A stretch of 13,451 bases of DNA from a virus. Taxonomy: Duplodnaviria > Heunggongvirae > Uroviricota > Caudoviricetes. A program made the translations under genes and the position numbers. This document shows, piece by piece, positions 2,843 to 12,675 of this stretch (positions are counted from its first letter, which is position 1; every line of letters begins with the position of its first letter). The notes beneath the pieces were generated by a model. That model was not told where the DNA came from. It did not search any database and saw nothing but the letters and a program-made list of their open reading frames with translations. Location of the stretch: IMG/VR virus record IMGVR_UViG_2695420471_000009; one strand, 5' to 3'.

Positions 2843-3223
2843 ATGACCGAGCGCATAGAATTTGTTTTACCTTACCCGCCGACGGTGAACACTTACTGGC
2901 GTCGTCGTGGCAGCACATATTTTGTATCAAAAGCCGGGGAGCGTTATCGCCGGGCAGTGGCGCTTATTGTTCGCCAGCAGCGGCTGAAATTAAGCCTGTC
3001 CGGAAGGTTGGCAATAAAAATTATTGCAGAACCACCGGATAAGCGCCGCCGTGACCTGGACAATATTCTGAAAGCGCCGCTGGATGCGCTGACGCATGCG
3101 GGGTTGCTAATGGACGATGAGCAGTTTGATGAAATCAATATCGTTCGTGCTCAGCCAGTATCTGGTGGACGTCTGGGGGTGAAGATTTATCCCATAATGC
3201 TTGAAGGGCAGGTCAAAAAATGA
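2843..3223 (+). CDS. rusA: RusA-family Holliday junction resolvase (copy 1)
   Basis: 126 aa with LPYPPTVNTYWRRR and DKRRRDLDN (acidic catalytic cluster) motifs typical of RusA. Stop overlaps the next start (ATGA). Confidence 0.9.
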   Translation: MTERIEFVLPYPPTVNTYWRRRGSTYFVSKAGERYRRAVALIVRQQRLKLSLSGRLAIKIIAEPPDKRRRDLDNILKAPLDALTHAGLLMDDEQFDEINIVRAQPVSGGRLGVKIYPIMLEGQVKK

Positions 3224-3318
3224 AACTGGAAGATTTACCGAAATACTACTCCCCAAAATCCCCCGGCCTGACTGATGCATCGGCCTCAACGTCGAAAGAT
3301 GCGCTGAGTATCACTGAT
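3220..3318 (+). pseudogene. 5' fragment of Q-like antiterminator gene, interrupted by IS2
   Basis: First 33 codons (MKLEDLPKYYSPKSPGLTDASASTSKDALSITD) match the start of the intact copies at 5399 and 6526. The reading frame runs into the IS2 end at 3320; base 3319 is N. Confidence 0.7.
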
Positions 3319-3330
3319 NTGGATTTGCCC

Positions 3331-4236
3331 CTATATTTCCAGACATCTGTTATCACTTAACCCATTACAAGCCCGCTGCCGCAGATATTCCCGTGGCGAG
3401 CGATAACCCAGCGCACTATGCGGATGCCATTCGTTATAATGCTCGAACGCCTCTGCAAGGTTCTTTGCTGCCGTTAACCCGTCTGGTTTGGGCATGATAC
3501 TGATGTAGTCACGCTTTATCGTTTTCACGAAGCTCTCTGCTATTCCGTTACTCTCCGGACTCCGCACCGCCGTGTTCTTCGGTTCAAGTCCCAACATCCG
3601 GGCGAACTGGCGTGTTTCATTAGCCCGGTAGCATGAACCATTATCCGTCAGCCACTCCACTGGAGACGACGGAAGATCGTTGCCGAAGCGGCGTTCCACC
3701 GCTCCCAGCATGACGTCCTGTACTGTTTCACTGTTGAAGCCGCCGGTAGTCACCGCCCAGTGCAGTGCCTCACGATCACAGCAGTCCAGCGCGAACGTGA
3801 CACGCAGTCTCTCTCCGTTATCACAGCAGAACTCGAACCCGTCAGAGCACCATCGCTGATTGCTTTCTTTCACGGCCACTCTGCCTGTATGTGCCCGTTT
3901 CGATGGCGGTACAGCAGGTTTTCGCTCAAGCAACAGCGCATTCTGGCGCATGATCCGGTAAACACGTTTGGCATTGATCGCAGGCATACCATCAAGTTCT
4001 GCCTGTCTGCGAAGCAGCGCCCATACCCGACGATAACCATACGTGGGCAGCTCTCCGATAACATGGTGTATACGGAGAAGCACATCCGTATCATCAGTGT
4101 GACGACTGCGGCGGCCATCCATCCAGTCATCGGTTCGTCTGAGAATGACGTGCAACTGCGCACGCGACACCCGGAGACAACGGCTGACTAAGCTTACTCC
4201 CCATCCCCGGGCAATAAGGGCGCGTGCGCTATCCAC
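3331..4236 (-). CDS. insD: IS2 transposase OrfB (InsD), DDE catalytic domain
   Basis: 301-codon frame with GTG start, overlapping insC in the -1 frame. Sequence is typical of IS3-family OrfB. Confidence 0.85.
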
Positions 4237-4559
4237 TTTTTTGCCCGTCCATATTCAACGGCTTCTTTGAGGAGTTCATTTTCCATCGTTTTCTTGCCGA
4301 GCAGGCGCTGGAGTTCTTTAATCTGCTTCATGGCGGCAGCAAGTTCAGAGGCAGGAACAACCTGTTCTCCGGCGGCGACAGCAGTAAGACTTCCTTCCTG
4401 GTATTGCTTACGCCAGAGAAATAACTGGCTGGCTGCTACACCATGTTGCCGGGCAACGAGGGAGACCGTCATCCCCGGTTCAAAGCTCTGCTGAACAATT
4501 GCGATCTTTTCCTGTGTGGTACGCCGTCTGCGTTTCTCCGGCCCTAAGACATCAATCAT
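4194..4559 (-). CDS. insC: IS2 OrfA (InsC), HTH DNA-binding/regulatory protein
   Basis: 121 aa starting [18 protein letters not shown] at the ATG at 4559 on the minus strand (track ORF extends upstream to 4604). Helix-turn-helix and leucine-zipper-like segment. Confidence 0.85.
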
Positions 4560-4770
4560 CTGTACTCCAATGACTAGTCTAAAAACTAGTATTAAGACTA
4601 TCACTTATTTAAGTGATACTGGTTGTCTGGAGATTCAGGGGGCCAGTCTACGGACATTTTCTGCCTGTGGACCAGGAAAGTGCACGGGTGCTTTCCACTC
4701 CCATGAAGCCCGGCAATCCGCGCAGATACAGTAATAAACGAACTGACAGCAGTAAGATGGAGCGTTTCTT

Positions 4771-5028: not shown

Positions 5029-5402
5029 TGCGCCATGAGTTTATTTTACCTTATCCGCCGACGGTGAATACTTACTGGCGACGTCGTGACAACACATATT
5101 TTGTATCAAAAGCCGGTGAGCGTTATCGCCGGGATGTGGCGCTTATTGTCCGTCAGCAGCGACTGAAATTAAGCCTGTCCGGAAGACTGGCGATAAAGAT
5201 TATTGCAGAGCCACCGGATAAGCGCCGTCGTGACCTGGACAATATCCTGAAAGCACCACTGGATGCACTGACACATGCGGGAGTGTTAATGGACGATGAG
5301 CAGTTTGATGAAATCAATATCGTTCGTGCTCAGCCAGTATCTGGTGGACGTCTGGGGGTGAAGATTTACCCCATAATGCATGAAGAGCAGGTCAAAAAAT
5401 GA
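5028..5402 (+). CDS. rusA: RusA-family Holliday junction resolvase (copy 2, distinct allele)
   Basis: 124 aa, about 90% identical to copy 1, with differences at the N-terminus and C-terminus (HEEQ versus LEGQ). Confidence 0.85.
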   Translation: MRHEFILPYPPTVNTYWRRRDNTYFVSKAGERYRRDVALIVRQQRLKLSLSGRLAIKIIAEPPDKRRRDLDNILKAPLDALTHAGVLMDDEQFDEINIVRAQPVSGGRLGVKIYPIMHEEQVKK

Positions 5403-6218
5403 AACTGGAAGATTTACCGAAATACTACTCCCCAAAATCCCCTTGCCTGACCGATGCATCGGCCTCAACGTCAAAAGATGCGCTGAGTATCACTGATGTG
5501 ATGGCCGCGCAGGGCATGACACAGAATCGGGCTGAGATGGGGGTTTCTGCGTTCCTTGGGAAAATGGGCATTAGTATGAATGACAGAGAGCGGGCAACAG
5601 AATTGCTGACAGAATATGCACTCAGTCGGTGTGATCGCGTGGCGGCGTTAAGAAAACTCCCGGCAGAAATAAAACCGGCAGTGATGCGTATTATGGCTTC
5701 GTATGCGTTTGAAGATTATGCCCGTAGCGCGGCGAGCAAAAAACAGTGCCCCTGCTGTCACGGAAAAAAATTTATTGAAAGCGAGGTTTTTACAAACAAG
5801 ATCCAGTATCCGGATGGTAAGCCGCCGGTATGGGCAAAGTGTACGAAAGGTGTGTATCCGTCTTACTGGGAAGAATGGAAAAAAGTCAGGGAGGTGGTAA
5901 AAGTTGCCTGTCCGGAGTGTGGCGGAAAGGGTGAGGTTTCCACCGCCTGTAAGGATTGCCGTGGGCGTGGTGTCGCCATTCATCGTGAAGAGTCGGTAAA
6001 ACGTGGTATGCCTGTTATCAGAGACTGCCAGCGTTGTGGTGGTCGTGGCTATGAAAGACTACCATCAACGGAGGCATTTAATGCTATATGCGAGGTGACA
6101 AACCAGATAACACGCGCGTCATGGGAAAAAACAGTTAAGAAATTCTATGATGCGCTGGTGACTCGGTTTGATATTGAAGAAGCATGGGCTGAGCGGCAGT
6201 TAAAAAAGGTAACTAGGT
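5399..6218 (+). CDS. Q-like late antiterminator candidate (copy 2); 3' end runs into an N junction
   Basis: Same protein as 6526..7347 with several substitutions. At N 6219 the frame continues into rusA internal sequence, which creates the 376-aa track ORF. This is a join artefact or recombination point, not a natural fusion. Confidence 0.55.
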
Positions 6219-6219
6219 N

Positions 6220-6529
6220 CACATATTTTGTATCAAAAGCCGGTGAGCGTTATCGCCGGGATGTGGCGCTTATTGTCCGTCAGCAGCGACTGAAATTAAG
6301 CCTGTCCGGAAGACTGGCGATAAAGATTATTGCAGAGCCACCGGATAAGCGCCGTCGTGACCTGGACAATATCCTGAAAGCACCACTGGATGCACTGACA
6401 CATGCGGGAGTGTTAATGGACGATGAGCAGTTTGATGAAATCAATATCGTTCGTGGTCAGCCAGTATCTGGTGGACGTCTGGGGGTGAAGATTTACCCCA
6501 TAATGCATGAAGAGCAGGTCAAAAAATGA
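6220..6529 (+). pseudogene. RusA 3' fragment (copy 3), beginning at the N junction
   Basis: Encodes RusA residues from TYFVSKAGERY to the C-terminus. No start codon or 5' part is present. Confidence 0.6.
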
Positions 6530-7347
6530 AACTGGAAGATTTACCGAAATACTACTCCCCAAAATCCCCTTGCCTGACCGATGCATCGGCCTCAACGTCA
6601 AAAGATGCGCTGAGTATCACTGATGTGATGGCCGCGCAGGGCATGACACAGAATCGGGCTGAGATGGGGTTTTCTGCGTTCCTGGGGAAAATGGGCATCA
6701 GTATGAATGACAGGGCGCGGGCAACAGAATTACTGGCAGATTATGCACTCAGTCGGTGCGATCGTGTGGCGGCGTTGAGAAAACTTCCGGCAGAAATAAA
6801 ACCGGTAGTGATGCGCATTATGGCTTCGTACGCTTTTGAGGATTATGCCCGCAGCGCAGCGAGTAAAAAGCAGTGCCCTTGTTGCTATGGGGAAAAATTT
6901 ATTGAAAGCGTAGTTTTTACAAACAAGGTCCAGTATCCGGATGGTAAGCCGCCGGTATGGGCAAAGTGTACGAAAGGTGTGTATCCGTCTTACTGGGAAG
7001 AATGGAAAAAAGTCAGGGAGGTGGTAAAAGTTGCCTGTCCGGAGTGTGGCGGAAAGGGTGAGGTTTCCACCGCCTGTAAGGATTGCCGTGGGCGTGGTGT
7101 CGCCATTCATCGTGAAGAGTCGGTAAAACGTGGTATGCCTGTTATCAGAGACTGCCAGCGTTGTGGTGGTCGTGGCTATGAAAGACTACCATCAACGGAG
7201 GCATTTAATGCTATATGCGAGGTGACAAACCAGATAACACGCGCGTCATGGGAAAAAACAGTTAAGAAATTCTATGATGCGCTGGTGACTCGGTTTGATA
7301 TTGAAGAAGCATGGGCTGAGCGGCAGTTAAAAAAGGTAACTAGGTAA
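6526..7347 (+). CDS. Q-like late-gene antiterminator candidate (273 aa) with four DnaJ-type CxxCxGxG zinc-finger repeats
   Basis: Lies after rusA and immediately upstream of a lambda-type pR' promoter, pause element and tR' terminator. Repeats CPCCYGEK, CPECGGKG, CKDCRGRG, CQRCGGRG. Q assignment is by position and context, not by recognised homology. Confidence 0.65.
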   Translation: MKLEDLPKYYSPKSPCLTDASASTSKDALSITDVMAAQGMTQNRAEMGFSAFLGKMGISMNDRARATELLADYALSRCDRVAALRKLPAEIKPVVMRIMASYAFEDYARSAASKKQCPCCYGEKFIESVVFTNKVQYPDGKPPVWAKCTKGVYPSYWEEWKKVREVVKVACPECGGKGEVSTACKDCRGRGVAIHREESVKRGMPVIRDCQRCGGRGYERLPSTEAFNAICEVTNQITRASWEKTVKKFYDALVTRFDIEEAWAERQLKKVTR

Positions 7348-7352
7348 CAAGG

Positions 7353-7380
7353 TTGATTTTTCCGGAATCTGTGGTAAATT
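7353..7380 (+). promoter_or_regulatory. Late promoter pR'-like (TTGATT, 16-nt spacer, TAAATT) with downstream AACGAT pause element at 7387-7392
   Basis: Resembles lambda pR', which has a GGTAAATT -10 region and an AACGAT sigma70-dependent pause element in the initial transcribed region. Lies 6 nt after the Q-like stop. Confidence 0.6.
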
Positions 7381-7386
7381 CGTCAT

Positions 7387-7452
7387 AACGATGGGCGTTT
7401 TATGCCTGACGTTAGAAGAGTTTCTACAACCCGCCGCCGAGCGGGTTTTTTA
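7387..7452 (+). ncRNA. Short pR'-to-tR' terminated transcript (lambda 6S-like / StxS-like candidate)
   Basis: Inferred from promoter and terminator positions only. The start coordinate is a guess. Confidence 0.35.
7429..7452 (+). terminator. tR'-like intrinsic terminator
   Basis: Stem CCCGC / GCGGG with loop CGCCGA, followed by TTTTTTAT. Confidence 0.65.
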
Positions 7453-7571
7453 TGACTGAAATCGCGTCAGTACAGTAAACGCGCTGGTGGCGGTGAATAC
7501 CTGTCTTTCAGCTTGCTGGCTTTTTCGACAAGAGTTATTGGTGTGTCACGTTAACCGGAAAAGGAAAAGAC

Positions 7572-7769
7572 ATGCTAAAACAGCAGGATATGACAGAAAC
7601 CGCCAGAGTGGTGTTTAATGAATTAAGCGTTACCGAACCGGCGACAGTCGGGGAGATAGCGCAGAATACTTACCTTTCACGCGAACGCTGCCAGTTAATA
7701 CTGACCCAGCTGGTTATGGCGGGTCTGGCAGACTATCAGTTCGGTTGTTACAGACGCCTTCCGCAGTGA
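7572..7769 (+). CDS. Hypothetical 65-aa protein, possible small winged-helix/HTH
   Basis: Good RBS (AAGGAAAAG, 4-nt spacer, ATG). Stop lies within a terminator hairpin. No family recognised. Confidence 0.5.
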   Translation: MLKQQDMTETARVVFNELSVTEPATVGEIAQNTYLSRERCQLILTQLVMAGLADYQFGCYRRLPQ

Positions 7770-7780
7770 AGGCTTTTTTA
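7756..7780 (+). terminator. Intrinsic terminator overlapping the stop of the 65-aa ORF
   Basis: Stem GCCTTC / GAAGGC with loop CGCAGT, followed by TTTTTTATTT. Confidence 0.5.
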
Positions 7781-7796
7781 TTTGTGGTAAATGGGC

Positions 7797-7827
7797 GGCT
7801 GGTGGGTGTTAGGGGCACCCACCAGCC
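7797..7827. repeat. Perfect 12-bp inverted repeat (GGCTGGTGGGTG / CACCCACCAGCC) with 7-nt loop, upstream of the methyltransferase
   Basis: Seen directly; no T-run follows, so it is not a classic terminator. The second repeat copy begins inside this loop, right after the N run. Confidence 0.5.
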
Positions 7828-7919
7828 ATCTGCTCATGCGTTGGGTTCACAAGCAAACCTCAGGCCCACTGCTTTGCGCAAAAGCAGAATGAGCCTATCA
7901 GAGACAGGCTTAATGATCC

Positions 7920-8978
7920 ATGCTTAATACTGTAAAAATATCCAGTTGTGAGTTAATCAACGCCGACTGCCTGGAATTTATCCGGTCGTTACCCGAAAAT
8001 TCTGTTGACCTGATAGTCACGGACCCGCCGTACTTTAAAGTGAAGCCTGAGGGCTGGGATAACCAGTGGAAGGGCGACGATGATTACCTGAAGTGGCTGG
8101 ACCAGTGTCTGGCGCAGTTCTGGCGGGTGCTGAAACCTGCCGGAAGTCTTTACCTGTTCTGTGGTCATCGCCTGGCATCTGATATCGAAATCATGATGCG
8201 TGAACGCTTCAGTGTGCTGAACCATATTATCTGGGCGAAGCCGTCCGGACGCTGGAACGGATGCAACAAGGAAAGCCTGCGGGCGTATTTCCCCGCCACA
8301 GAGCGCATTCTGTTCGCGGAACATTATCAGGGGCCGTATCGTCCGAAAGATGCCGGGTATGCGGCGAAGGGCAGTGCACTGAAACAGCATGTGATGGCCC
8401 CGCTGATTTCTTACTTTCGTGATGCGCGAGCTGCCCTGGGGATAACGGCAAAACAGATTGCAGATGCCACAGGAAAGAAAAACATGGTGTCGCACTGGTT
8501 CAGTGCCGGTCAGTGGCAGTTGCCGAATGAAAGCGATTATCTGAAATTACAGGCGCTGTTTGCCCGGGTGGCAGAAGAGAAGCATCGGCGTGGTGAACTG
8601 GAAAAGCTCCACCACCAGCTGGTGGATACGTATACCTCACTGAACCGGCAGTATGCGGAGCTGCTGAGTGAATATAAACATCTGCGGCGGTATTTTGGCG
8701 TGACGGTGCAGGTGCCGTATACCGATGTGTGGACGCATAAACCGGTGCAGTTCTATCCCGGGAAACATCCGTGCGAAAAACCGGCAGAAATGCTGCAGCA
8801 GATAATCAGCGCTAGCAGTCGTCCGGGTGACCTGATTGCAGATTTTTTCATGGGGTTGGGTTCGACAGTGAAAGCGGCACTGGCGCTCGGGCGTCGTGCA
8901 ATTGGCGTTGAGCTGGAGACTGAACGTTTTGAGCAGACGGTTCGGGAAGTACAGGATTTAGTCAGCCAGAACGGATGA
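7920..8978 (+). CDS. DNA methyltransferase, beta-class N6-adenine/N4-cytosine type (copy 1)
   Basis: DPPY catalytic motif (TDPPYF) near the N-terminus and AdoMet motif FxGxGS (DFFMGLGST) near the C-terminus. This motif order defines the beta class. No restriction endonuclease gene is adjacent. Confidence 0.85.
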   Translation: MLNTVKISSCELINADCLEFIRSLPENSVDLIVTDPPYFKVKPEGWDNQWKGDDDYLKWLDQCLAQFWRVLKPAGSLYLFCGHRLASDIEIMMRERFSVLNHIIWAKPSGRWNGCNKESLRAYFPATERILFAEHYQGPYRPKDAGYAAKGSALKQHVMAPLISYFRDARAALGITAKQIADATGKKNMVSHWFSAGQWQLPNESDYLKLQALFARVAEEKHRRGELEKLHHQLVDTYTSLNRQYAELLSEYKHLRRYFGVTVQVPYTDVWTHKPVQFYPGKHPCEKPAEMLQQIISASSRPGDLIADFFMGLGSTVKAALALGRRAIGVELETERFEQTVREVQDLVSQNG

Positions 8979-9018
8979 TATTGAAGAATTAATTACGCGT
9001 CGTTATTATGCGGCTCCC

Positions 9019-9094
9019 GGCCCTTTAGCTCAGTGGTGAGAGCGAGCGACTCATAATCGCCAGGTCGCTGGTTCAAATCCAGCAAGGGCCACCA
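9019..9094 (+). tRNA. ileZ: tRNA with CAU anticodon (Met or lysidine-Ile2), ileZ-like
   Basis: Cloverleaf: acceptor GGCCCTT / AAGGGCC, D-arm GCTC...GAGC, anticodon loop CTCATAA, T-arm GCTGG TTCAAAT CCAGC, then A-CCA. Confidence 0.8.
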
Positions 9095-9101
9095 TCACAT
9101 A

Positions 9102-9178
9102 CCGCCATTAGCTCATCAGGAAAGAGCGCCAGCCTTCGAAGCTGGCTGCGCGGGGTTCAAGTCCCCGATGGCGGTCCA
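9102..9178 (+). tRNA. argN: tRNA-Arg (anticodon UCG), argN-like
   Basis: Acceptor CCGCCAT / ATGGCGG, anticodon arm CCAGC CTTCGAA GCTGG, T-arm CGGGG TTCAAGT CCCCG, then CCA. Confidence 0.75.
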
Positions 9179-9191
9179 TTATCTGCATCAT

Positions 9192-9268
9192 GCGTTGTTA
9201 GCTCAGCCGGACAGAGCAATTGCCTTCTAAGCAATCGGTCACTGGTTCGAATCCAGTACAACGCGCCA
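9192..9268 (+). tRNA. argO: tRNA-Arg (anticodon UCU), argO-like
   Basis: Acceptor GCGTTGT / ACAACGC, anticodon arm ATTGC CTTCTAA GCAAT, T-arm ACTGG TTCGAAT CCAGT, then G-CCA. Confidence 0.8.
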
Positions 9269-9282
9269 CACTTATTTTCCCT

Positions 9283-9308
9283 GGCTCGCTTTTGCGGGCC
9301 TTTTTTTT
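9283..9308 (+). terminator. Intrinsic terminator after the tRNA triplet
   Basis: Stem GGCTCGC / GCGGGCC (one G-U pair) with loop TTTT, followed by eight T. Confidence 0.6.
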
Positions 9309-9314
9309 AAATGT

Positions 9315-9527
9315 CTCACAATTCAGACGGTTGACAGTTGTCTGTTTTGCGGGGAGTTTGTTAAAAGAAACTGGCATGGTGAATCCCCCTGTGCGGAGGG
9401 GCAATCAGCGAGTAGGTATATGGGATAATCGCGGATTCAGGTGCTGGTACTGAATTCACCGGGAGGCACCCGGCATCATGCAATGGCACATAGCGCCACT
9501 CTCCAGCCCTCTCCGGAGGGGCTTTTC
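9315..9527 (+). repeat. Conserved ~215-bp GC-rich structured element downstream of tRNAs (copy A)
   Basis: Three copies in the window, with TTGACA near the 5' end and a GC hairpin plus T-rich tail at the 3' end. Copy A has a weaker 3' hairpin and is followed by the N junction at 9546. Confidence 0.5.
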
Positions 9528-9546
9528 TGTGCCGGATACATCACAG

Positions 9547-9607
9547 TTTCTGGAANCGGTTTGATATTGAAGAAGCATGGGCTGAGCGGCAGTTAAAAAA
9601 GGTAACT
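9547..9607 (+). pseudogene. 3' fragment of a third-allele Q-like gene, beginning at the N junction
   Basis: Encodes ...FDIEEAWAERQLKKVTR. A 7-bp deletion relative to 7341-7350 removes the TAA stop. Confidence 0.5.
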
Positions 9608-9610
9608 AGG

Positions 9611-9638
9611 TTGATTTTTCCGGAATCTGTGGTAAATT
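9611..9638 (+). promoter_or_regulatory. pR'-like late promoter (second copy), pause element variant AACTAT
   Basis: TTGATT, 16-nt spacer, TAAATT. Pause hexamer at 9645-9650 reads AACTAT instead of AACGAT. Confidence 0.55.
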
Positions 9639-9686
9639 CGTCATAACTATGGGCGTTTTATGCCTGACGTTAGAAGAGTTTCTACA

Positions 9687-9710
9687 ACCCGCCGCCGAGC
9701 GGGTTTTTTA
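9687..9710 (+). terminator. tR'-like terminator (second copy)
   Basis: Same CCCGC / GCGGG hairpin and T6 tract as at 7429. Confidence 0.6.
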
Positions 9711-9748
9711 TTGCGGAATTAATTACGGACCGTTATTATTCTGCTCCC

Positions 9749-9824
9749 GGCCCTTTAGCTCAGTGGTGAGAGCGAGCGACTCATAATCGCCAGGTCGCTG
9801 GTTCAAATCCAGCAAGGGCCACCA
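9749..9824 (+). tRNA. ileZ: tRNA with CAU anticodon (ileZ-like), copy 2
   Basis: Identical to 9019..9094. Here it sits directly after tR' with no 65-aa ORF or methyltransferase in between, as in Stx-type phages. Confidence 0.8.
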
Positions 9825-9831
9825 TCACAAA

Positions 9832-9911
9832 CCGCCATTAGCTTATCAGGAAGAGCAGACGACACGATAACAGGGTTGTTGGTGCGGGGGCGGGTCCCCG
9901 ATGGCGGTCCA
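9832..9911 (+). pseudogene. Degenerate argN-like tRNA (anticodon arm replaced, non-canonical T-loop)
   Basis: Acceptor and D-arm match tRNA-Arg(UCG), but the region between D-arm and T-stem is unrelated and the T-loop lacks TTCRA. Confidence 0.5.
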
Positions 9912-9924
9912 TTATCGGTATTCA

Positions 9925-10001
9925 GCGTTGTTAGCTCAGCCGGACAGAGCAATTGCCTTCTAAGCAATCGGTCACTGGTTCGAATCCAGTACAGCGCGCC
10001 A
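9925..10001 (+). tRNA. argO: tRNA-Arg (anticodon UCU), argO-like, variant with G-U pair in acceptor stem
   Basis: Same as 9192..9268 except the 3' acceptor strand reads ACAGCGC (A to G change gives a T-G wobble). Confidence 0.7.
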
Positions 10002-10668: not shown

Positions 10669-10893
10669 TCACAATTCAGGCGGTTGACTGTTGTCTGGTT
10701 TGCGGGGAGTTTGTTAAAAGAAACTGGCATGGTGAATCCCCCTGTGCGGAGGGGCAATCAGCGAGTAGGTATATGGGATAATCGCGGATTCAGGTGCTGG
10801 TACTGAATTCACCGGGAGGCACCCGGCACCATGCAATGGCACATAGCGCCACTCTCCAGCCCCTCTCCGGAGGGGCTGTTTATATTGATTTTG
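10669..10893 (+). repeat. Conserved GC-rich structured element downstream of tRNAs (copy B, divergent)
   Basis: Homologous to 9315..9527 and 12450..12675 with scattered substitutions (TTGACT instead of TTGACA). Ends with a perfect 8-bp hairpin and T-rich tail. Confidence 0.5.
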
Positions 10894-10934: not shown

Positions 10935-10944
10935 NNNNNNNNNN
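10935..10944. other. Assembly gap (10 N)
   Basis: Run of N. Both flanks end inside inverted-repeat hairpins. Confidence 0.95.
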
Positions 10945-12153: not shown

Positions 12154-12229
12154 GGCCCTTTAGCTCAGTGGTGAGAGCGAGCGACTCATAATCGCCAGGT
12201 CGCTGGTTCAAATCCAGCAAGGGCCACCA
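12154..12229 (+). tRNA. ileZ: tRNA with CAU anticodon (ileZ-like), copy 3
   Basis: Identical to 9019..9094. Confidence 0.8.
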
Positions 12230-12236
12230 TCACATA

Positions 12237-12313
12237 CCGCCATTAGCTCATCAGGAAAGAGCGCCAGCCTTCGAAGCTGGCTGCGCGGGGTTCAAGTCCC
12301 CGATGGCGGTCCA
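12237..12313 (+). tRNA. argN: tRNA-Arg (UCG), copy 3
   Basis: Identical to 9102..9178. Confidence 0.75.
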
Positions 12314-12326
12314 TTATCTGCATCAT

Positions 12327-12403
12327 GCGTTGTTAGCTCAGCCGGACAGAGCAATTGCCTTCTAAGCAATCGGTCACTGGTTCGAATCCAGTACAACGCG
12401 CCA
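12327..12403 (+). tRNA. argO: tRNA-Arg (UCU), copy 3
   Basis: Identical to 9192..9268. Confidence 0.8.
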
Positions 12404-12449: not shown

Positions 12450-12675
12450 CTCACAATTCAGACGGTTGACAGTTGTCTGTTTTGCGGGGAGTTTGTTAAA
12501 AGAAACTGGCATGGTGAATCCCCCTGTGCGGAGGGGCAATCAGCGAGTAGGTATATGGGATAATCGCGGATTCAGGTGCTGGTACTGAATTCACCGGGAG
12601 GCACCCGGCACCATGCAATGGCACATAGCGCCACTCTCCAGCCCCTCTCCGGAGGGGCTGTTTATATTGATTTTG
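12450..12675 (+). repeat. Conserved GC-rich structured element downstream of tRNAs (copy C)
   Basis: TTGACA at 12466; 3' hairpin AGCCCCTC TCCG GAGGGGCT at 12640..12659 followed by a T-rich tail. Confidence 0.5.

Follow-up and report, generated by a model that had tools for sequence, protein, structure and literature searches.

A long-form Q gene of the lambda family and its probable late promoter cassette in an Escherichia coli lambdoid prophage

The viral record IMGVR_UViG_2695420471_000009, a stretch of 13,451 nucleotides assigned to the Caudoviricetes and referred to here as the window, carries a gene (6526..7347, plus strand, 273 codons plus stop) which almost certainly encodes the Q-lambda-family late-gene antiterminator of an Escherichia coli lambdoid prophage, followed by its cognate late promoter cassette. 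The gene is a long form of Q with eight cysteines. Membership of the family, the cysteine ligands, the fold, the geometry of the cassette and purifying selection are all observed, and DNA binding, pausing, the formation of a nozzle and antitermination would be expected by analogy with lambda and phi80. The parts of the Q protein and the elements of the cassette described below are all encoded on the plus strand.

Homology places the protein in the lambda Q family over its whole length. In the Pfam scan the protein scored 183.7 bits with PF03589, for which the cut-off is 26.7 (E 6e-55). The PHROG 127 family, 'anti-termination protein Q-like', covered the entire protein at E 1e-110, and the best match in the PDB was lambda Q itself (7ubm_Q, E 1.5e-40). 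The alignment to lambda Q is ungapped over residues 1-113, which pair with its residues 1-113 (E 1e-22), and again over residues 182-273, which pair with 116-207 (E 5e-15). The profiles of the Q21 (PF06530) and Q82 (PF06323) families, whose accessions are given in PMC9388147, had no match to Q when Pfam was scanned with E values up to 1, and membership of either family was rejected on this ground. An AlphaFold2 model built from 56 homologues reached a mean predicted local distance difference test (pLDDT) value of 80.9, with residues 1-25 of the free protein below 50. When the model was compared with the PDB by Foldseek, all eight significant matches were lambda Q chains (probability 1.00), led by 7ubn_Q (E 4e-14), with template modelling scores by target length of 0.61-0.75. 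The model agrees in this with the lambda fold, a four-helix body with a helix-turn-helix together with the arm. An earlier reading of the window, made from its sequence only, had proposed a Q-like antiterminator on the basis of gene position, to be set against lambda Q, Q21 and DnaJ by homology and structure prediction. Both comparisons lead to lambda Q, with no Q21 profile match and with DnaJ below threshold, and the position agrees as well, RusA lying upstream and a methylase and tRNAs downstream, followed in a complete genome by holin and lysozyme.

The correspondence extends to the individual segments of the protein. In lambda Q (207 amino acids; PDB 4MO1, 7UBJ-7UBN), which belongs to the same PF03589 family, the body is made of two stretches, 61-113 and 153-207, and a shuffled zinc ribbon at 114-152 serves as the arm (Yin et al., PMC9388147); its N-terminal segment, body, arm and four cysteines all have ungapped counterparts here. 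Residues 1-60 (6526..6705) align without gaps to lambda Q 1-60, a segment which is disordered in the free protein and refolds on the RNA polymerase into an exit-channel nozzle (PMC9388147), and by analogy they would take the same nozzle role. The first half of the body, residues 61-113 (6706..6864), aligns to lambda Q 61-113 and is modelled as helices with pLDDT of 83-96. The second half, residues 219-273 (7180..7344), aligns to lambda Q 153-207, where the helix-turn-helix is located (PMC9388147), and contains modelled helices at 223-233 and 239-272. Between the two halves lie a lambda-type zinc-ribbon arm (residues 182-218, 7069..7179, aligned to lambda Q 116-152) and a block which falls in a gap of the lambda Q alignment (residues 114-181, 6865..7068). 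This block of about 66-68 amino acids (approximately 114-181) is the sole structural difference from lambda Q and, given the limits of body and arm set by Yin et al. (PMC9388147), it sits exactly at the junction of the two. Lambda Q lacks these residues and therefore has four cysteines and one zinc, against the eight cysteines found here.

The eight cysteines are arranged in four knuckles, C117-P-C-C-Y-G-E-K, C171PECGGKG, C184KDCRGRG and C210QRCGGRG, with spacings of 54, 13 and 26 residues. Knuckles 1 (C117xxC120, 6874-6897) and 2 (C171xxC174, 7036-7059) belong to the extra block, and knuckles 3 (C184xxC187, 7075-7098) and 4 (C210xxC213, 7153-7176) to the arm. The sequence-only reading had described four tandem CxxCxGxG repeats. 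Four motifs are indeed present, but the exact pattern is found in three of them (C171, C184 and C210), C117 reading CxxCxGxK, and the array is not strictly tandem, the first motif standing 54 residues before the second. The arm cysteines C184, C187, C210 and C213 align to C118, C121, C144 and C147 of lambda Q and are invariant among the 56 homologues. Lambda Q itself carries two such motifs, CRDCHGTG and CGRCKGVG, whose four cysteines ligate its single zinc, and the pair forms the zinc-ribbon arm (PMC9388147).

The presence of DnaJ-type CxxCxGxG motifs had been regarded in that reading as unexpected in a lambda-type Q. The surprise is misplaced, because lambda Q itself has two of them; moreover, the four-knuckle form is the commonest in the family and is shared by phi80 Q. 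Nor does the combination of Q with DnaJ-like motifs amount to a new pairing. The Pfam model of the DnaJ central domain (PF00684) remained below threshold (28.4 against 32.7 bits), its partial match being limited to residues 171-218, that is knuckles 2 to 4, and to profile positions 1-52 of 65. NCBIfam DnaJ models likewise matched the knuckles only (residues 163-218), with 27.9 bits against a cut-off of 377, and neither a J domain nor a DnaJ C-terminal domain was among the Pfam or the NCBIfam matches of Q. A comparison of the arm with other zinc-containing folds gave values, reported without a label, of 4.1 for DnaJA2, 3.2 for Streptococcus pneumoniae DnaJ, 2.7 for lambda Q, 2.4 for the E. coli DnaJ cysteine-rich domain and 2.3 for anti-TRAP. 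The Q arm is in the same broad class of zinc-knuckle ribbons, and this is not evidence of a DnaJ module joined to Q. With respect to the DnaJ cysteine-rich domain (PF00684; PDB 1EXK), the knuckle spacings of Q are different. Furthermore, the zinc centres of DnaJ are built by nested pairing, motif 1 with 4 and 2 with 3, whereas the pairing implied for Q by analogy with lambda would be in tandem, 1 with 2 and 3 with 4.

These comparisons also bear on the proposal that the protein is a DnaJ-like zinc-finger chaperone or holdase, or some other non-Q zinc protein, which merely happens to lie in the Q position. The likeness to DnaJ is restricted to the knuckles and stays under the curated cut-off, the companion J and C-terminal domains are missing, and the lambda Q arm and anti-TRAP score similarly weakly; the full-length homology is to lambda Q, which effectively refutes the proposal, and we consider it extremely improbable. 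A homologue from Serratia quinivorans (P0033) is misnamed 'chaperone protein DnaJ' in its database entry.

The extra block shares in the constraint that acts on the whole gene. The ratio of non-synonymous to synonymous substitution rates (dN/dS) is 0.11 between the Q gene and a second copy in the window (5399-6218), and its median is 0.13 against alleles of related viral loci (29 comparisons with dS above 0.02); the gene is under strong purifying selection. For the extra block taken alone, dN/dS is 0.065, and C117, C120, C171 and C174 are kept at 99% or more among 107 long-form homologues. The model shows a long beta-hairpin formed by residues 125-136 and 159-170, between knuckles 1 and 2. The block is most likely a second zinc site, putative as to metal binding, combined with a beta-hairpin at the base of the arm. 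Homology with lambda assigns a single zinc to knuckles 3 and 4 together, so that the second would presumably be held by knuckles 1 and 2, in tandem pairing. The second copy at 5399-6218 is a full Q allele with 96.2% DNA identity to the focal one, differing at 31 of 820 bases and nine residues; four of these nine (H121Y, K123E, E129V and I135V) fall in or next to knuckle 1 and the hairpin.

A survey of 1.84 billion cluster representatives at 50% identity returned 236 relatives. All eight cysteines are present in 32 of the roughly 40 full-length representatives and the four of the lambda type in only about five, so that the four-knuckle module is the norm of the family and lambda Q a reduced form. 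In the 32 eight-cysteine representatives the knuckles mostly follow CxxCxGxG, with glycine at +5 in 31-32 of the 32 and at +7 in 25-32; knuckles 1 and 2 are separated by a segment of very variable length, with blocks of 28-77 amino acids as the result. The eight-cysteine form is also common to thousands of entries named "antitermination protein". An internal duplication was considered as the origin of the block and was not retained: a single comparison gave a weak self-match (10 of 29 identities, E 0.002), which is suggestive and does not establish it. Some relatives (P0139, P0133, P0170, P0156, P0163 and the phi80 Q, L004 601-1407) have one residue fewer between the cysteines of knuckle 3, which reads CxCxGxG. 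In precomputed annotations most long-form Q proteins are listed with PF27659.1, which the Pfam scan performed here did not report.

Immediately after the Q gene, the window contains a late promoter, pR' (7353..7380), made of a -35 hexamer TTGATT (7353-7358), a 16-nt spacer TTTCCGGAATCTGTGG (7359-7374) and a -10 hexamer TAAATT (7375-7380); the latter is preceded by TGg, giving an extended -10 element TGgTAAATT at 7372-7380. After six further nucleotides (CGTCAT) follows the sigma-70-dependent pause element, AACGAT with GGG (7387..7395). The hexamer, at 7387-7392, is the sole AACGAT in the window. By analogy with lambda it would occupy +1 to +6, with a pause predicted near +16/+17 (about 7402-7403), and the GGG next to it would serve as a discriminator-like triplet. 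In lambda, AACGAT at +1 to +6, with a GGG discriminator-like sequence after it, induces a sigma-70-dependent pause at +16 which Q needs (PMC4005639). The terminator scan then places an intrinsic terminator, tR', at 7428..7453, with a hairpin at 7428-7447 (7-bp GC-rich stem, 6-nt loop) and a T6 run to 7453. The predicted RNA fold of 7386-7455 contains this hairpin (z-score -2.5), and tR' would end the unmodified pR' transcript after approximately 62-67 nt. At the level of sequence, these elements correspond to the cassette as it has been defined, comprising the Q gene, promoter, binding element, pause element and terminator (PMC9388147), with the spacer TTTCCGGAATCTGTGG as the candidate Q-binding element.

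The claim that the cassette mirrors the pR', pause and tR' layout of lambda is borne out. TTGATT, the 16-nt gap, TAAATT, AACGAT and the terminator are all found in the places assigned to them, and the stretch TAAATT-N6-AACGATGGG is identical in the two: lambda pR' reads TTGACT, 17 nt, TAAATT, TGACTC and AACGATGGG, and the window reads TTGATT, 16 nt, TAAATT, CGTCAT and AACGATGGG. The cassettes therefore share the -10 hexamer, the 6-nt gap and AACGATGGG, and they differ in the spacer, which holds the binding element, and in the terminator, at about +190 in lambda and about +62 in the window. Two sites in the window, at 7353 and 9611, fit the combined pattern TTGAYT-N16/17-TAAATT-N6-AANNATGGG, which did not appear in any of 200 shuffles.

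Conservation points in the same direction. The cassette pattern was matched in 71 of 80 closely related viral loci. Across these 71 there is hardly any change in the -35, the spacer or the -10, and the linker of 6 nt is variable; the tR' element was also found in homologous loci. The pause hexamers of the 71 are AACGAT, AATGAT, AATAAT, AACTAT, AAAGAT and AACAAT, so that only positions 3 and 4 vary (AAnnAT); the single exception among related loci is GATGAT. The hexamer thus keeps A2 and T6, the two bases of a -10 element which matter most to sigma-70. In mEp237, Stx2c phages, phi80 and Eho49, too, the Q gene is followed by elements laid out in this manner. The spacers of the long-form promoters resemble each other, namely TTTCCGGAATCTGTGG in the window, TTTCCCGAATCTGTGT in mEp237, TTTCCCGAAACTGGGG in Eho49 and that of phi80, and share a motif, TTTCCsGAA..CTG.GG, which is unlike the lambda spacer. 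The second occurrence of the pattern in the window belongs to another prophage piece (9557-9718, -35 at 9611), with AACTAT as the pause hexamer and tRNAs directly after it, without a methylase. An 8-nt deletion, TAACAAGG, removes the Q stop codon there, and that allele would therefore run on for 11 codons, through the promoter; the same deletion is seen in three of the 80 related viral loci.

Phage phi80 offers the closest parallel among the studied systems. Its Q (gp17, 269 amino acids) is 41% identical to the window Q over the full length and shares the extra block, the hairpin and both added cysteine knuckles. Downstream of the gene, as in the window, pR' has a Q site behind its -35 and then a -10, and it leads into a pause-like TAACGCTGGG and a terminator close by; the phi80 record annotates pR', the Q-binding site and terminators in the same layout. 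That site, TCGCGGA, lies directly after the -35, and its equivalent in the window is TTCCGGA. The two systems differ in these bases, in the length of the spacer (17 nt in phi80, 16 here), in knuckle 3, which is CxCxGxG in phi80, and in the genes upstream, Rap/Lar there and RusA here. DNA binding by phi80 Q was reportedly the subject of work by Guo and Roberts in 2004 (J Bacteriol 186:3599, cited in PMC9388147).

Taken by analogy with lambda, the switch would operate as follows. RNA polymerase would start at pR', at about 7387, and sigma-70 region 2 would re-bind the -10-like AACGAT at +1 to +6, causing the polymerase to pause near +16. Q would bind the Q-binding element in the spacer through its helix-turn-helix body and zinc-ribbon arm, and would also touch the polymerase and sigma region 4 in its new position. 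In the presence of NusA, a nozzle would form on the RNA exit channel by refolding of the N-terminal segment of Q, and the polymerase modified in this way would ignore the terminator at 7428-7453 and those which come later, so that the late genes would be transcribed. The loading and antitermination mechanism on which this scheme is modelled is that of lambda Q (PMC9388147).

Several points weigh against this interpretation. A generic sigma-70 scan called no promoter at pR', since its hexamers match at 8 of 12 positions and the scan threshold was 9 of 12; the case for the promoter consequently rests on conservation and on its likeness to lambda pR'. For this allele, where transcription starts and pauses, and its read-through of the terminator, are all predictions by analogy. 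The spacer differs from the lambda Q-binding element, and therefore the DNA contacts are not transferable base for base. The extra zinc block is absent from the solved structures, and any fit of it into the lambda loading complex would be conjectural. Finally, related prophages can be degraded, as shown by the pseudogenes of strain TOE17, and the switch may therefore no longer drive a productive lytic cycle in this host.

The position of the extra block raises the question of whether the long form loads exactly as lambda Q does. The knuckle pair at the hinge, together with the hairpin, could add a contact to DNA near the -35, to sigma region 4 or to the polymerase flap; alternatively, the block could fix the arm in an extended position. 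In either form, the eight-cysteine Q would engage the paused complex in a geometry outside the lambda structures. The block lies precisely at the hinge about which the lambda arm swings by approximately 75 degrees to reach positions 11-13 of the binding element (PMC9388147). It is constrained as strongly as the rest of Q, its four additional cysteines are retained across the family while the length of the hairpin varies, and the spacer motif of the long-form promoters departs from that of lambda. Against this, the segments by which lambda Q makes all its known contacts (N-terminal segment, arm and body) are all retained ungapped, the cassette geometry of -10, six nucleotides and pause element is unchanged, and an added contact is a conjecture. 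Modified loading, in the two forms together, is thus put forward as a tentative possibility, and it is compatible with the identification of the gene as a lambda-family Q.

A different question concerns the role of the gene in the host, for which the neighbourhood is informative. DUF968 and RusA lie upstream of Q. Past the terminator, the presumed Q-dependent transcription unit begins on the same strand (7572..9268) with an open reading frame (ORF) of 65 amino acids (7572-7769), a DNA methylase (7920-8978) and a tRNA array Met(CAT)/Arg/Arg (9019-9268). The 65-amino-acid ORF is the first one past the terminator; it had no match in Pfam or NCBIfam, is labelled 'hypothetical protein' in RefSeq, and has a second terminator-like hairpin at its end (7756-7773, plus strand). 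Scanning 7340-7800 against Rfam gave no match to a known RNA family. The same gene order recurs in the complete genome of strain TOE17, where it continues with holin, lysozyme and lysis genes; this locus, the closest in complete genomes, is a truncated prophage with pseudogenes directly upstream.

The Q gene could on these grounds be the intact but idle remnant of a defective prophage, its product still able to antiterminate but serving a lytic cycle no longer, and any present role would be the incidental expression of methylase, tRNAs and cargo. Besides the truncation and pseudogenes at the TOE17 locus, it fits this picture that the window consists of pieces of several prophages, with one Q cut at codon 33 beside an IS2 element, and that related DNA recurs in up to 10 places in an E. 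coli genome. The strong purifying selection on Q and the near-invariance of the promoter elements speak against idleness, as does the occurrence of a 98.9% identical Q in the sequenced phage mEp460_ev081, and we judge it unlikely. The proposal concerns the biological role and not the molecular mechanism, and the identification of the gene as a lambda-family Q antiterminator is the same in either case.

The window was assembled as a scaffold from small contigs, with single Ns or a run of ten Ns at the joins (3319, 6219, 9556 and 10935-10944), and 6220-9555, with the Q gene and its cassette, is continuous sequence without any N. Its pieces come from several related lambdoid prophages and nearly duplicate one another; among them RusA, Q and the tRNA array are each present three times and an identical methylase twice. 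The repeats start right after the Ns, and because of this a tandem duplication of RusA and Q was rejected in favour of an assembly effect. A 376-amino-acid "Q-RusA fusion" ORF (5399-6529) is similarly an artefact which reads across the N at 6219. The third Q copy (3220-3318) is interrupted at codon 33 by an N of the scaffold, with IS2 immediately after it (3331-4604, minus strand; TnpA 4194-4604 and TnpB 3331-4236, with NCBIfam IS2 models well above cut-off); either IS2 has inserted into a Q gene, or the contig breaks at the insertion sequence.

Other features of the window were recorded alongside. The three prophage tRNA arrays (9019-9268, 9749-10001 and 12154-12403) contain Met(CAT), Arg(TCG) and Arg(TCT), the middle one without Arg(TCG); in RefSeq the CAT tRNA of a homologous locus is annotated as tRNA-Ile. 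The small RNA family STnc100 (Rfam RF02076) has three copies, at 9345-9534, 10698-10887 and 12480-12669, scoring 124-134 bits, of which those at 9345 and 12480 adjoin prophage tRNA arrays, just downstream. A hok/sok-type type I toxin-antitoxin is located at 881-1206, with an Rfam match to sok (881-1056) of 112 bits against a gathering score of 59, and a Hok-like ORF (994-1206) whose NCBIfam Hok match is under the cut-off.

The Q described here is widely distributed. Proteins 100% identical to it occur in at least 16 IMG/VR viral contigs, and it has 98% identity to a cluster whose 3739 sequences go by the name "antitermination protein [Escherichia coli]". Of 5426 complete E. coli genomes, 3341 contain relatives of the DNA at 6220-7900, in up to 10 places per genome. 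What separates the alleles of E. coli prophages and mEp460_ev081 from that of the window is a small number of substitutions and, in the pause hexamer, positions 3 and 4, which is nothing of substance. Long-form homologues are found in Salmonella, Klebsiella, Enterobacter, Citrobacter, Serratia and other genera, and in the phages phi80, ES18, mEp237 and Eho49 and the Stx2c-converting phages, whose Q genes are 39% identical to that of the window.

The finding of a late-gene switch in this prophage is sound but ordinary, and already known. It is ordinary because the DnaJ-like cysteine motifs are a normal trait of the lambda Q family, and it matters little as a discovery, since identical proteins are public, near-identical ones are named, the phi80 homologue has been studied and the mechanism of lambda is described at atomic level. 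For annotators, the implication is that DnaJ-like knuckles are not to be read as a chaperone domain, one database entry having already been misnamed. For the family, the eight-cysteine form is the norm at 50% clustering and the four-cysteine form of lambda the exception, and structures have been solved only for the exception. If loading were indeed modified, the lambda structures would represent a form that is both reduced and in the minority, and the geometry in which the majority loads, phi80, this prophage and the Stx2c phages among them, would still await description. As this family controls the late genes in Stx2c-converting phages, solving a loading complex with a long-form Q would add something real, if modest.

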